Shown: positions 26,342 through 31,603 of the stretch, in pieces
Layout of the letters: every line of letters begins with the position of its first letter
Numbering within the stretch: position 1 is the first letter of the stretch
Source: Escherichia coli
GTDB taxonomy: Bacteria; Pseudomonadota; Gammaproteobacteria; Enterobacterales; Enterobacteriaceae
DNA length: 64,000 nucleotides
Direction: 5' to 3' (one strand)
NCBI RefSeq assembly: GCF_051903065.1
Contig: NZ_CP178438.1
Program-made: the position numbers and the translations under genes
Notes under the pieces: generated by a model
Told to the model about the DNA's origin: nothing
Database searches by the model: none
What the model saw: only the letters and a program-made list of their open reading frames with translations

Positions 26342-27385
26342 ATGCGTATTGAAGAAGATCTGAAGTTAGGTTTTAAAGACGTTCTCATCCGCCCTAAACG
26401 CTCCACTCTTAAAAGCCGTTCCGATGTTGAACTGGAACGTCAATTCACCTTCAAACATTCAGGTCAGAGCTGGTCCGGCGTGCCGATTATCGCCGCAAAT
26501 ATGGACACCGTAGGCACATTTTCTATGGCCTCTGCGCTGGCTTCTTTTGATATTTTGACTGCTGTGCATAAACACTATTCTGTCGAAGAGTGGCAAGCGT
26601 TTATCAACAATTCTTCCGCTGATGTGCTGAAACATGTGATGGTTTCTACCGGTACGTCTGATGCGGATTTCGAAAAAACTAAACAGATTCTCGACCTGAA
26701 CCCGGCATTAAACTTCGTTTGTATTGATGTGGCGAATGGTTATTCCGAACACTTCGTGCAGTTCGTTGCGAAAGCGCGTGAAGCGTGGCCGACCAAAACC
26801 ATTTGTGCTGGCAACGTAGTGACTGGTGAAATGTGTGAGGAGCTTATCCTCTCCGGTGCCGATATCGTTAAAGTTGGCATTGGCCCAGGTTCTGTTTGTA
26901 CAACTCGCGTCAAAACAGGCGTCGGTTATCCGCAACTTTCTGCGGTAATCGAATGTGCCGATGCTGCGCACGGTCTGGGCGGAATGATCGTCAGCGATGG
27001 TGGCTGCACCACGCCGGGCGATGTCGCGAAAGCTTTTGGCGGCGGTGCCGATTTCGTCATGCTTGGTGGCATGCTGGCGGGCCACGAAGAGAGCGGCGGT
27101 CGCATCGTTGAGGAGAACGGCGAGAAATTTATGCTGTTCTACGGCATGAGCTCCGAGTCTGCGATGAAACGTCACGTTGGCGGCGTTGCTGAATATCGCG
27201 CAGCAGAAGGTAAAACCGTTAAGCTGCCGCTGCGAGGCCCGGTTGAAAATACCGCGCGTGATATTTTGGGCGGCCTGCGTTCAGCTTGTACATACGTTGG
27301 GGCTTCACGCCTGAAAGAACTGACCAAGCGCACCACATTTATCCGTGTGCAGGAACAAGAAAACCGCATCTTCAACAACCTGTAA
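26342..27385 (+). CDS. guaC: GMP reductase GuaC
   Basis: 347-aa IMPDH/GMPR-family TIM-barrel ORF. Confidence 0.96.
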
Positions 27386-27393
27386 TCTTCCAA

Positions 27394-27419
27394 CGCTGGT
27401 GTGGAGCAACACGCCAGCG
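27394..27419. terminator. Imperfect hairpin between convergent guaC and hofC
   Basis: CGCTGGTGT-ggagca-ACACGCCAGCG inverted repeat. Confidence 0.35.
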
Positions 27420-28622
27420 TTATCCCATCCCACTCATCGCATCGCCTAAATGGAAAATTGGTAGATACATCGCCACCACCAGCGTACCGATAATTCCTCC
27501 CGTTATGATCAGCAACGCCGGTTCCAGTAAGGCTGCTAGGTTATCCGCCAGCGCCATTGTGTTATCCCGATGATGATGGGCGATGTTGTCTAACATGAGA
27601 TCCAGCGAGCCGGAGGCCTCTCCCGTTCTCACTAATTGCAAACAGAGCGGGCTAAACTCACCGGCATTTTTTAACGCCAGCCAGATGGGATGACCGTTAC
27701 TGATATCGTGCTGGATTTGTGTCAGAAGTTGCACCCAGTACGGGCAGCGCATTGTTTCTCTGACGCTCTCTACGCCCTGTAAAAAAGTAATGCCTGCACT
27801 TTGAGTCAGCGCCAGAATCGTAAAGATCTGCGTGAGTTTTTGTCCCCGCATCAGTGACCCCATAATCGGGATGCGTAACAGCAATTTCTGCCGCGCGATA
27901 AGCCAGGTCGGGCGGCGCATCAGCAACTTATTGGCTATCGTCAGCATAATGCCGAACAACACCAGCAGCCAGCCCCATTCGCCACTAAAGTCTGCCAGCG
28001 TCATGATCCCCTGCGTTAGTGCCGGTAGTGGGGTGTTGAAGGTCTTATATATAGCGGCAAACTCCGGCAGAACAAAATGCAGCATTGCCACAACCACCAT
28101 GATTGCCATCGCTAAAATGATGATGGGATAACGCAACGCTGATTTCACTTTGTCGGTCAACTGACGCTGGGCTTTTTGCTGACGCGCCAGTTCAAAGCAG
28201 CATTCATCCAGCTTACCGGTCAGTTCACCCGTGCGGATCATCGCCTGATAGAGCGGCGGAAATACCTCTGACCAGGGTAATAAGGCATTGGAAAAAGCAA
28301 TGCCCTGTTCGAGATCGTGCGCCAGCGATTGCAGCAACGCTTGCCATTGCTTACTGGGATGCTGTTCCGCCAGCAGAGCCAGCCCTTCAGAAAGAGTTAA
28401 CCCGGCTTTAAGTAGCGTCGCCAGTTGATGAATGACTTCCGCGCTTTTATCTCCTCGCCACTGCGCAGAATTGATAGCAATTCGCTTCAGGCTTAGTGGA
28501 GTAACCATCTGTTGCTGTAGTGCCATGAGCAGCAAAGCACGGCTCTCTGCCCATCGCATCCCATCTTGCGCATTGCCGTCGCCGGTTATGCCATGCCAGC
28601 GCCAGAGTTGCTTACTCGCCAT
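27420..28622 (-). CDS. hofC: Type IV pilus assembly platform protein HofC (PilC/GspF family)
   Basis: 400-aa polytopic membrane ORF with duplicated GspF-like domains. Confidence 0.93.
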   Translation of the reverse strand: MASKQLWRWHGITGDGNAQDGMRWAESRALLLMALQQQMVTPLSLKRIAINSAQWRGDKSAEVIHQLATLLKAGLTLSEGLALLAEQHPSKQWQALLQSLAHDLEQGIAFSNALLPWSEVFPPLYQAMIRTGELTGKLDECCFELARQQKAQRQLTDKVKSALRYPIIILAMAIMVVVAMLHFVLPEFAAIYKTFNTPLPALTQGIMTLADFSGEWGWLLVLFGIMLTIANKLLMRRPTWLIARQKLLLRIPIMGSLMRGQKLTQIFTILALTQSAGITFLQGVESVRETMRCPYWVQLLTQIQHDISNGHPIWLALKNAGEFSPLCLQLVRTGEASGSLDLMLDNIAHHHRDNTMALADNLAALLEPALLIITGGIIGTLVVAMYLPIFHLGDAMSGMG

Positions 28623-29997
28623 GCGGCATCCCCAATACGCGGATTAACTCTTCAAAGGTGGTTAAGCCTTGCTCCACGGCCAGGCAGCCGTTTTCAAAAA
28701 GCGTTCGCATACCCGCCTGTCGGGCGTGCGTTTCCAGCGATTCAACGTCGGTATTAGCGGAAATAAGCTGACGTATGACCGGTGTTATGGGCAGAACTTC
28801 AAATAAGGCAGTGCGACCATAAAAACCGTGGTAGCAATGTACACAACCGGGTGCCTGCCAATGGGGCAGCGGCGACGGCCATACATTGTCTGGAATATGG
28901 ATGAGCTCCCCTTGCTGTCGGCGACAATGTGGGCAAAGTTTACGTACCAGACGCTGGGCTATTACCAGCGTAAGCGCCGATGATAGCATCCAGCGGGCGA
29001 CCCCCATTTGCTGTAAACGTACCAGCGTTTCAGTGGTGGAATTGGTGTGTAGCGTGGACAACACCAGGTGACCGGTTTGCGCGGCTTTAATGGCAATTTC
29101 TGCCGTTTCGCCATCGCGGATCTCTCCGATCATGATGACGTCAGGATCCTGGCGCAATAACGCACGCAAAACGCCCTGAAAGGTGAGCCCGGCACGCGGA
29201 TGGATTTGCGTCTGGTTTAGTCCGGCTATGGGGATCTCAACCGGATCTTCGACGCTACAAATATTAATGTCAGCGGTATTCAGCTTTTGCAGGGCACTAT
29301 AAAGTGTGACCGTTTTGCCGCTGCCGGTAGGGCCAGTTACCAGCACCAGTCCCTGCGGTTGTTGCAAGGCATGAGCAAAGTCCGCCAGTTGTAACGGCTG
29401 CATTCCCAGCGTGTTAACATCCAGTGCCTGGCTCACCTGCTGTAACAACCTTAATACCACCTTTTCACCACCCCGACATGGTAAGGTCGCAATACGAAAT
29501 GAGACGGCGTTTCCTGCCAGTTCGACAGTGAATTGCCCGTCCTGCGGCAGGCGATGTTCCGCAATATCCAGGTTTCCCAGCACTTTTAATCTGGCGGTTA
29601 ATGCGACTCCGGCATCCGGTGAAACATCCGGTAAAGGATGCAATACGCCGTCGATACGCAAGCGGATGCGGTAGGCATTGTCCGCTGGTTCGATATGAAT
29701 ATCAGACGCGCGTTGTTCCAGCGCAGATTGTAACGTTCGAGTCAGCAACTCTGCTTTGGGCTGATGCTTCTCCTGAACAGCTACGGGCAATGTCTGTTGT
29801 GTGCGACTGGCGTGACCTTCCATTTGTTGGCGCGTCCAGCAGGTGATCTCAATACGTTTGGTGGTAGCGAAATGCAATGCGTCCAGCAACTCATGTGAGG
29901 GGGCATCGACCACCGCAACATGAACCACTTCTTCGCTGGCATCCAGCAAGACTCCCTGATAACGCAGGCACAGGGCCGTGAGCTGTGGAATATTCAT
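28612..29997 (-). CDS. hofB: Type IV pilus assembly ATPase HofB (PilB/GspE family)
   Basis: 461-aa ORF with Walker A GPTGSGKT and tetracysteine motif. Confidence 0.94.
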   Translation of the reverse strand: MNIPQLTALCLRYQGVLLDASEEVVHVAVVDAPSHELLDALHFATTKRIEITCWTRQQMEGHASRTQQTLPVAVQEKHQPKAELLTRTLQSALEQRASDIHIEPADNAYRIRLRIDGVLHPLPDVSPDAGVALTARLKVLGNLDIAEHRLPQDGQFTVELAGNAVSFRIATLPCRGGEKVVLRLLQQVSQALDVNTLGMQPLQLADFAHALQQPQGLVLVTGPTGSGKTVTLYSALQKLNTADINICSVEDPVEIPIAGLNQTQIHPRAGLTFQGVLRALLRQDPDVIMIGEIRDGETAEIAIKAAQTGHLVLSTLHTNSTTETLVRLQQMGVARWMLSSALTLVIAQRLVRKLCPHCRRQQGELIHIPDNVWPSPLPHWQAPGCVHCYHGFYGRTALFEVLPITPVIRQLISANTDVESLETHARQAGMRTLFENGCLAVEQGLTTFEELIRVLGMPHGE

Positions 29998-30006
29998 TGC
30001 CGCTCC

Positions 30007-30447
30007 TTAGTTGGCGTCATCAAAGCGGAAGACATCTTCGCAGGCTTGCTGCAATGCGCTGTCACTTTGAATATTGCAGTTGCGCGCCCAGCCGGTGACG
30101 CCGTTTGCGTTATCCCAACCTGGCGTCATGACGACGCTTAGCCCATTGAGACTTTCTTGCCCGGTCAGCGACACCACGCCCTTTGCCACACTCATGGCTG
30201 AAACATAGCGGGTGGTGGTAGGCGAGGGAATGCCATTGCTGCCACCGTCGCAGGTATCTAATCCACCATGTTCCAGCGCGCACAACTCTACGGCGGTACG
30301 GTAAGGCACAAAGGTTTGTAGCATGTCGGTGAGTGCGGCTTTGCGCAGGTAGTTTTGATAAGCGGGAATACCAATGGCGCTTAAAATGGCAATGATGCCA
30401 ATAACCACCATCAGTTCGATAAGTGTAAAACCGCGTTGCTTGTCCAT
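30007..30447 (-). CDS. ppdD: Prepilin-type major pilin PpdD
   Basis: 146-aa ORF with class III leader and N-methylation site GFTLIELMVV. Confidence 0.94.
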   Translation of the reverse strand: MDKQRGFTLIELMVVIGIIAILSAIGIPAYQNYLRKAALTDMLQTFVPYRTAVELCALEHGGLDTCDGGSNGIPSPTTTRYVSAMSVAKGVVSLTGQESLNGLSVVMTPGWDNANGVTGWARNCNIQSDSALQQACEDVFRFDDAN

Positions 30448-30649
30448 CTGTTTCGCTCCTTGATTTGGTTGGTGCTACTTTGGCAAACGCCATCAGCACA
30501 GGCGAGGGGCAAAAAACGAAACGGGAAAGCTGCTTCCGAGGTTTTTTATTTCGTTGCAGCGAAAGACAAGAAATTTGCGAGGCGTTACGAAGAAGGTTGG
30601 GGAAGGGGAGATTATCCGCCCACTATGGAGCGGATAAATCTGTCAGCAA

Positions 30650-31603
<954 letters not shown>

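Follow-up and report, generated by a model that had tools for sequence, protein, structure and literature searches.

The ppdD-hofB-hofC pilus operon of an Escherichia coli strain: intact genes, a CRP-S site, and conserved promoter blocks

Does an intact set of pilus genes imply a working pilus? We asked this of a 64,000-nt stretch of the E. coli contig NZ_CP178438.1 (the window). An initial annotation of this DNA had recognized full-length hofC, hofB, and ppdD genes and had argued that their intactness implies retained function in this strain. We are highly confident that these genes form E. coli's chromosomal ppdD-hofB-hofC operon, which encodes a major type IVa pilin, an extension ATPase, and an inner-membrane platform protein (Table 1).

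Table 1. Features of the operon and its upstream region, with positions in the window.
Feature	Position	Strand	Basis or remark
hofC, PilC/GspF-type inner-membrane platform protein, 400 aa	27420..28622	-	ORF, Pfam, NCBIfam
hofB, PilB/GspE-family assembly ATPase, 461 aa	28612..29997	-	ORF, Pfam, NCBIfam, motifs
ppdD, type IVa major prepilin, 146 aa, 6-residue leader	30007..30447	-	ORF, N_methyl, PpdD equivalog
ppdD Shine-Dalgarno AAGGAG	30456..30461	-	read from sequence; near-invariant in 78 sequences
TGCCAAAGT (TGnCAnAGT)	30477..30485	-	near-invariant columns
T-run then CCCCTCGCC, invariant TCG	30501..30516	-	invariant or near-invariant columns
Inverted repeat GGAA-N6-TTCC, conserved core GAA-N6-TTC	30524..30537	-	alignment of 78 sequences
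Conserved TGCAAC-N4-TAAAAA block	30543..30558	-	conserved columns, 78-sequence alignment
CRP-S-type site TTCGTAACGCCTCGCA	30576..30591	-	centre 136.5 nt upstream of ppdD ATG
Hairpin TTATCCGC...GCGGATAA directly past nadC stop codon	30612..30637	-	read from sequence

The ORF listing has three minus-strand reading frames with ATG starts and zero internal stops, which together span exactly 27420-30447. Their products have the same lengths as in K-12. There is an 11-nt overlap between hofB and hofC, and 9 nt separate ppdD from hofB. Each protein passes the NCBIfam cut-off for its own family: 660.7 bits for HofC (NF007861, cut-off 401), 822.4 bits for HofB (NF007755, cut-off 617), and 268.7 bits for PpdD (NF007862, cut-off 138). 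The gene identities and full lengths given in the initial annotation were right, and the motifs that it listed (Walker A and tetracysteine in HofB, a class III leader in PpdD) are all present in the translations.

HofC has the two T2SSF domains of a PilC/GspF platform protein, as this Pfam family matches it in two stretches, and its closest solved structure is PilC (3jc8, 4e-44). HofB matches T2SSE (7.6e-147), with the Walker A motif GPTGSGKT at residue 222 and the tetracysteine motif as CPHC at 355 and CVHC at 385. In an alignment of 78 sequences, the Walker A motif is invariant and the four cysteine positions are conserved. HofB is thus predicted to be a hexameric ATPase of the PilB/GspE family with a tetracysteine zinc motif; its best solved relatives are PilB structures (1e-104 to 1e-101). 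PpdD matches N_methyl and TIGR02532. It begins with MDKQRG followed by FTLIELMVV, which gives it the short leader, G-1, F+1, E+5, and hydrophobic N-terminal helix of a major prepilin. Residues 7-146 are 100% identical to the solved mature chain in PDB 6GV9, A121 included; because that chain aligns from residue 7, it is consistent with cleavage of a class III leader after G6.

RefSeq calls the product of hofB "type II secretion system protein GspE", and HofB and HofC match GspE and GspF models with strong E-values, which might suggest that they are components of type II secretion. However, HofB reaches just 458.7 bits where the GspE equivalog requires 630.25 (it is also below the cut-off of the PilB equivalog), and HofC reaches 264.2 bits against a GspF cut-off of 424, while both pass the models specific to HofB and HofC. 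Also, the two genes lie directly behind a type IVa pilin gene and their neighbors are ppdD, guaC, and nadC, not a gspC-M cluster, and the best matches among solved structures are PilB and PilC. We consider a role in type II secretion very improbable.

The ppdD-hofBC locus was found in 5423 of 5426 complete E. coli genomes, so it belongs to the core genome of the species. We compared 13 genomes (K-12, the window, and 11 spread-sampled genomes), and 12 of them have no broken gene among the three. An intact ppdD-hofBC is the default state of E. coli, and the genes, the structure, and the control by Sxy and CRP have already been published. The original finding is correct and ordinary.

At least 363 of the 5426 genomes, including that of the ST131 strain EC958, have a nonsense mutation in hofB (W380*). 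The operon is therefore dispensable in a successful lineage. The mutation makes this large clade a natural pilus-ATPase knockout, which is of modest practical interest. A "pseudogene" flag on hofB in strain GN03204 is an artefact: the record begins inside the gene, and codon 380 is TGG there.

The locus would have lost interest had its alleles been identical to those of K-12, and they are not. Nucleotide identity to K-12 is about 97%: hofC, hofB, and ppdD have 33, 45, and 3 nucleotide differences, which change 11, 4, and 1 amino acids, respectively. All four substitutions in HofB fall at positions that vary among the 78 sequences, and we read the non-K-12 alleles as ordinary lineage polymorphism at variable positions. 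The promoter region (202 bp) has 9 substitutions relative to K-12, with 0 in the CRP-S core. Over 25 kb, the window matches strains 23CRST027 and 23CRST031 at 100% identity, and the 23CRST027 lineage comes from human faeces.

Averaged over pairs of sequences, dN/dS is 0.11 for hofC, 0.09 for hofB, and 0.14 for ppdD. These values are 3-6 times higher than those of the flanking genes (0.017 for guaC and 0.039 for nadC). As judged from these ratios, purifying selection on ppdD-hofBC is real, yet relaxed. Relatives of ppdD were found in 136 genome stretches, and the 80 loci that we kept come from many genera of Enterobacteriaceae and are 78-99% identical. Outside Escherichia, the pilin is more conserved than the ATPase: PpdD has 78-92% identity, as compared to a median of 67% for HofB.

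The operon had been described as poorly expressed in the laboratory, and the literature agrees. Unless Sxy is supplied artificially, neither K-12 nor any of the 72 ECOR strains tested makes detectable PpdD, and natural transformation was never seen (PMC3330819). In K-12, Sxy raised the level of the transcript 90-fold, and this depended on CRP and cAMP (PMC1635313). Because the 90-fold induction was measured with hofB primers (PMC1635313), hofB is co-induced.

An upstream CRP-S site had been proposed as a check on this control, and one is present and conserved in position. TTCGTAACGCCTCGCA matches 8 of the 10 core positions of TGCGA-N6-TCGCA, including both C6 and G17. It is unchanged in K-12 and falls inside the fragment used for EMSA in PMC1635313. 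Among 78 Enterobacteriaceae sequences, a best-scoring CRP-S site recurs at this position in 68, and 48 have an exact TCGCA half. A match to CRP-S is not by itself above chance, with 32 matches in the window and 44 expected. No sigma-70 consensus promoter was found in the region, which fits activator dependence. Also, sxy is intact in the genome that is identical to the window over 25 kb (NZ_AP045789.1).

Silence in laboratory culture, in both K-12 and the ECOR strains (PMC3330819; PMC2649431), could also mean that the operon is a cryptic relic that is functionless in this strain and is intact because there has been too little time for decay. The hofB W380* clade and the higher dN/dS relative to neighboring housekeeping genes would fit with this. 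On the other hand, dN/dS near 0.1 is far below neutrality, few of the compared genomes have a broken gene, the catalytic motifs are invariant, and both the pilin (across the 80 loci) and blocks of the promoter are conserved across many genera. Furthermore, pilus reconstitution (bioRxiv 10.1101/856302) and Sxy-induced DNA uptake (PMC3330819) both work. A relic therefore seems improbable.

Function of the pilus requires at least 10 genes outside the window, and thirteen genes suffice for assembly of the PpdD pilus (bioRxiv 10.1101/856302). We looked for the partner genes, which lie beyond the window, in the matching genome of 23CRST027 (NZ_AP045789.1; identical over the same 25 kb). The genes for the alignment subcomplex and secretin (hofMNOPQ) and for the minor pilins PpdA, PpdB, YgdB, and PpdC (ppdAB-ygdB-ppdC) are intact, with all nine annotated, and dprA and yggR are intact as well. 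The gspC-O cluster of K-12 is absent from this genome. The only gene of the prepilin peptidase family that we saw in it encodes a short Peptidase_A24 protein of 155 aa, which has 41% identity to the C-terminal part of K-12's GspO and which no NCBIfam model matches. This is a putative, and uncertain, prepilin peptidase for PpdD in this strain. Thus, the strain encodes most parts of the PpdD pilus. Its assembly genes, minor pilins, and Sxy activator are intact, while the prepilin peptidase is uncertain, and the operon is therefore probably inducible like that of K-12.

So, what does intactness tell us? The step from intactness to function is weak, as K-12 and 72 ECOR strains have this operon intact and keep it silent. 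Purifying selection (dN/dS of about 0.1), together with intact partner genes in an identical genome, does make a retained capacity plausible. The conclusion of the initial annotation is partly supported.

In the reading that we favor, ppdD-hofB-hofC is one of three scattered clusters (the others are hofMNOPQ and ppdAB-ygdB-ppdC) whose products make the PpdD pilus with the help of a prepilin peptidase. A weak, activator-dependent promoter upstream of ppdD, bearing the CRP-S site, would transcribe the operon. Expression would therefore need active cAMP-CRP as well as the active co-activator Sxy, and the operon would otherwise be silent. Once PpdD is expressed, the prepilin peptidase would remove its six-residue leader, and HofB hexamers would drive HofC to polymerise PpdD through the HofMNOP/HofQ envelope complex. 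The resulting fibre would be used in low-level DNA uptake and, in some pathotypes, in adhesion. We infer from its genes that this strain would express the operon, process the leader, assemble the pilus, and take up DNA.

The operon had also been linked to DNA uptake and to DNA's use as a nutrient. Sxy-induced DNA uptake has been shown, and it requires the secretin HofQ, which is encoded elsewhere (PMC3330819); the shown dependence is on a gene outside this operon. The operon might instead serve mainly in adhesion or virulence, through the pilus known as the "haemorrhagic coli pilus" (HcpABC). In its mature form, PpdD has the same sequence as the solved pilus subunit 6GV9, an entry from enterohaemorrhagic E. 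coli (EHEC). PpdD pili are assembled by EHEC grown on minimal casein medium, and HofQ, which this operon does not encode, contributes to kidney colonisation by UPEC (PMC2649431). In contrast, the promoter bears a competence-type CRP-S site and not the signature of a virulence regulator, the host strain came from human faeces, and the greater conservation of PpdD than of HofB would be unusual for a surface-exposed adhesin under immune pressure. We think that adhesion is unlikely to be the main role, although it has a real chance of being so, and the two roles are not mutually exclusive.

Besides CRP-S, the region upstream of ppdD contains conserved blocks, in the order TGCAAC-N4-TAAAA, GAA-N6-TTC, a T-run then CCnCTCGCC, and TGnCAnAGT, with rigid spacing across about 78 Enterobacteriaceae sequences. 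In 55 of the 78, the centres of the inverted repeat and the CRP-S site lie exactly 53 bp apart, and TGCCAAAGT is 48.5 bp from the repeat's centre in 58. TAAAAA is a candidate -10 element, and TGCCAAAGT is an alternative candidate, as an extended -10 element. TGCAAC-N4-TAAAAA is also found in the ppdA promoter at the same distance from the CRP-S site. When the two promoters are compared in register without gaps, 32 of 53 positions are identical, which 0 of 200 shuffles reach; the shared parts are CRP-S, CTGCAACG, and the TAAA part. Local alignments of the ppdD promoter to the ppdA and hofM promoters gave marginal scores (reached by 8/500 and 10/500 shuffles). TGCAAC may resemble a CytR half-site, as in deoP2, where CRP sites are 53 bp apart. 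Our literature search found no paper linking CytR to the regulation of ppdD.

We considered several identities for GGAA-N6-TTCC. Its pairs G-C, A-T, and A-T are kept in 76, 69, and 67 of the 78 sequences, respectively, with weak covariation. We rejected an RNA hairpin or attenuator: the outer pair alone varies, 16 sequences changed on both sides and 27 have unpaired cells, and slid controls score similarly, without convincing covariation. By eye, against consensus sequences, we found no support for a sigma-54 promoter (Enterobacter-type sequences lack the GG), a sigma-32 promoter (the spacing is wrong), a sigma-E promoter, or a second CRP site (half-site position 7 is A).

In the E. coli ppdD leader, GUUUCGUUUUUUG pairs with CAAGGAGCGAAAC (MFE -36.9 kcal/mol, z = -3.05). 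We rejected a structured 5' leader that sequesters the Shine-Dalgarno sequence as a conserved feature, as RNAalifold gave no consensus structure for the 78 sequences, and the leader matched no family in Rfam. The hairpin TTATCCGC...GCGGATAA is likely the nadC terminator; other genera have G+C-rich hairpins at the equivalent place.

We propose, tentatively and with considerable doubt, that the ppdD promoter or leader carries undescribed regulatory elements besides CRP-S. If so, the blocks could be where Sxy or another regulator acts, or they could make up an unusual core promoter, and could in this way help explain the tight silence of the E. coli competence pilus. The blocks are of modest practical interest as well, as a guide for studies of what keeps the competence genes of E. 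coli off.

It is useful to compare this operon to better-known systems. The type IVa proteins PilA, PilB, and PilC of Pseudomonas and Myxococcus have the same type of prepilin leader and a homologous ATPase and platform, but HofB is shorter than PilB by about 100-120 residues at the N-terminus (residues 75-454 of HofB align with 173-558 or 195-577 of PilB). We know of no twitching motility by the PpdD/Hof system. The pilABCD operon of Haemophilus influenzae has the same order (pilin, ATPase, platform), a CRP-S site with C6 and G17, and dependence on Sxy (PMC1635313). However, it includes pilD, while the E. coli operon does not, and the prepilin peptidase of E. coli is encoded elsewhere. Also, the left half-site of the E. 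coli CRP-S site is degenerate (TTCGT), and natural transformation of E. coli is undetectable without help from lambda Red (PMC3330819). The EHEC pilus (hcpA-hcpB-hcpC, or PpdD; PDB 6GV9 and 6GMS) has a 100% identical mature pilin; the host differs, as ours belongs to a human faecal isolate lineage (23CRST027), and the pilin is the part that we compared. Finally, ppdD-hofB-hofC of E. coli K-12 (b0108-b0106) has the same gene order, lengths, junctions, and CRP-S site, and the same flanking genes, guaC and nadC-ampD-ampE.

The window contains a full-length ORF for each of the type IV pilus genes ppdD, hofB, and hofC (27420-30447, minus strand), with exactly the coordinates in the initial annotation. 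The ppdD-hofB gap is 9 nt and hofB and hofC overlap by 11 nt, which fits a single operon. Its neighbours are guaC (plus strand) at one end and nadC, ampD, and ampE at the other, and its G+C (0.52-0.56) is unremarkable.

Features of the ppdD-hofB-hofC region and of hofB alleles with the W380* stop codon
Feature	Position	Strand	Remarks
hofC ORF	27420..28622	minus	400 aa, ATG start, 0 internal stops (six-frame ORF list)
hofB ORF	28612..29997	minus	461 aa, ATG start, 0 internal stops (six-frame ORF list)
ppdD ORF	30007..30447	minus	146 aa, ATG start, 0 internal stops (six-frame ORF list)
CRP-S-type site TTCGTAACGCCTCGCA	30591..30576	minus	within the 202-bp nadC-ppdD spacer
CTGCAAC and TAAAA blocks	ppdD upstream		conserved across genera
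GAA-N6-TTC inverted repeat	ppdD upstream		centre exactly 53 bp from CRP-S centre in 55/78 sequences
T-run then CCnCTCGCC	ppdD upstream		TCG invariant
TGnCAnAGT	ppdD upstream		48.5 bp beyond inverted repeat in 58/78 sequences
hofB with W380*, CRKP-1	L011:2313-3698
hofB with W380*, H105	L015:1404-2789
hofB with W380*, EC958	L023:5413-6798

The platform protein, ATPase, and prepilin had been identified accurately, down to each motif. In Pfam, HofC matches T2SSF in two stretches, HofB matches T2SSE (7.6e-147) and part of the MshEN domain, and PpdD matches the N-terminal methylation motif. The NCBIfam equivalogs for HofC, the HofB-type ATPase (NF007755), and PpdD all scored well above their cut-offs; those for GspE, GspF, and PilB also matched, with scores below the cut-offs. 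The Walker A motif of HofB, GPTGSGKT, is at residue 222, and its two CxxC pairs are at 355 and 385. PpdD begins with the leader MDKQRG followed by FTLIE, and its residues 7-146 are identical to the chain of PDB 6GV9, a solved PpdD pilus.

To see how common the operon is, we compared a 3.4 kb query spanning it to 5426 complete E. coli genomes. It matched in 5424 of these, near full length in 5423, and just 319 of the matched genomes had at least 99% identity. The alleles are not identical to those of K-12: hofC departs from it at 33 nucleotides and 11 residues, hofB at 45 and 4, and ppdD at 3 and 1 (T121A). Over 25 kb, 23CRST027 and 23CRST031, both isolated from human faeces in Ecuador, match the window with 100% identity. 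A further comparison covered 13 genomes, namely K-12, the window, and 11 others evenly spaced in the ranking by identity. Residues that depart from K-12 are mostly the majority state among these, and HofB P365L is private to the window's allele. In an alignment with 77 other species, all four HofB positions that differ from K-12 are variable, while the Walker A motif is invariant and the cysteine positions are conserved. The differences from K-12 are ordinary lineage polymorphism.

Twelve of the 13 genomes carry ppdD, hofB, and hofC intact. The exception is strain CRKP-1, whose hofB has TGA in place of TGG at codon 380 (W380*), which falls between the CxxC pairs; the window has TGG (28858-28860). 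An 83-mer with this stop codon has an exact copy in 363 of the 5426 complete genomes, including CRKP-1, H105, and EC958 (the reference strain for ST131), whose hofB is flagged in RefSeq with an "internal stop". Our literature search found no paper that mentions hofB together with ST131. The hofB of GN03204 (NZ_CP095540.1) is flagged as an incomplete pseudogene, which is an artefact: the circular record has its origin within hofB, and the 1359 nt seen contain no stop codons.

Mean pairwise dN/dS is 0.11 for hofC, 0.09 for hofB, and 0.14 for ppdD, versus 0.017 for guaC and 0.039 for nadC. By this measure, selection on the pilus genes is clearly purifying, and looser than on their housekeeping neighbours. 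With 12 of 13 genomes intact as well, intactness is the default state of this operon. The initial annotation took intactness to imply retained function in this strain; intactness speaks for a capacity kept by the species, and this does not extend to activity in the strain itself.

As to its suggestion to look for a CRP-S site upstream of ppdD, we found TTCGTAACGCCTCGCA, which matches 8 of the 10 core positions of the consensus, although matches of this quality are not rare by chance (32 observed in the window versus 44 expected). The site has the diagnostic C6 and G17, and K-12 carries it unchanged. Across 78 Enterobacteriaceae sequences, the best-scoring site lies 130.5-139.5 nt from the ppdD ATG in 68, with an exact TCGCA half in 48; Klebsiella and relatives have the better-matching TGCGA as the left half. 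Cameron and Redfield reported that a fragment containing this position binds CRP weakly, and that Sxy gives a 90-fold induction that is wholly dependent on CRP and cAMP (PMC1635313). Because the induction was measured with hofB primers, it also supports co-transcription. CRP-S promoters are described as Class I-like (PMC6728893). Neither candidate -10 element (TAAAAA or TGnCAnAGT) gives the textbook geometry, and we found no sigma-70 consensus promoter across 27300-30750.

Besides the CRP-S site, several blocks of the ppdD upstream region are conserved between genera (~78 Enterobacteriaceae sequences; about 1080-1200 in the compared stretches L024-L103, window 30477-30558, minus strand), with rigid spacing among them. 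In Escherichia, a 13-bp helix can form between GUUUCGUUUUUUG and the Shine-Dalgarno region CAAGGAGCGAAAC (window 30448-30522, minus strand; fold z-score -3.05). This pairing is not kept in other genera, so we rejected a Shine-Dalgarno-sequestering fold as a conserved feature. Since we also found no RNA structure conserved in the blocks, little covariation in the inverted repeat, and no Rfam family that matches the region, the blocks appear to be DNA-level elements. The ppdA promoter of 23CRST027 (NZ_AP045789.1; L018:8918-9101) shares a CRP-S-like site, CTGCAACG, and TAAA with that of ppdD (window 30543-30595), in register. The two are identical at 32 of 53 positions without gaps, and none of 200 shuffles scored as high.

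Outside Escherichia, PpdD is 78-92% identical (L024-L103, ppdD at 1201-1638), and the median identity of the first 390 residues of HofB is 67% (same stretches). Across genera, PpdD is more conserved than HofB. A major pilin that is more conserved than the ATPase is the reverse of the usual situation for surface pilins.

The link to DNA as a nutrient reportedly comes from Palchevskiy and Finkel 2006. That the operon is poorly expressed in the laboratory agrees with the literature: neither K-12 nor any of 72 ECOR strains made detectable PpdD unless Sxy was provided artificially, whereupon processed pilin appeared (PMC3330819). Sxy-induced DNA uptake was low, depended on the secretin HofQ, and was detectable only with lambda Red (PMC3330819). 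EHEC assembles PpdD pili on minimal casein medium; in UPEC, mutation of hofQ lowers kidney colonisation (PMC2649431). Also, ppdD plus twelve assembly genes suffice for pili to form in E. coli (bioRxiv 10.1101/856302).

The pilus also depends on partner genes outside the window; for these, we used NZ_AP045789.1, where hofMNOPQ, ppdA-ppdB-ygdB-ppdC, dprA, yggR (PilT-like), and sxy are all annotated as intact. The gspA-O/chiA cluster of K-12 (including gspC-O) is absent. The rpsJ-bfr interval has one orphan Peptidase_A24 gene (L020:1274-1741; 3921273-3921740), whose 155-aa product shares just 41% identity with the C-terminal portion of GspO from K-12 and matches no NCBIfam model. In the same genome, tRNA-Phe (pheV) is immediately followed by a tyrosine integrase gene (L021:20562-22001), suggesting that a genomic island takes the place of K-12's yghD-pppA-yghJ region. 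Also, tufA is annotated as frameshifted (L020:2664-3846), which may reflect either an erroneous indel in the assembly or a genuine lesion. If this genome does contain assembly errors, then intactness calls elsewhere in it depend on correct assembly.

Overall, the initial annotation's interpretation was largely right, and overstated on function. Here ppdD-hofB-hofC, a textbook core-genome operon, is in its usual state and hence of little interest. K-12 has the same arrangement of the operon and its flanking genes, with identical gene lengths.
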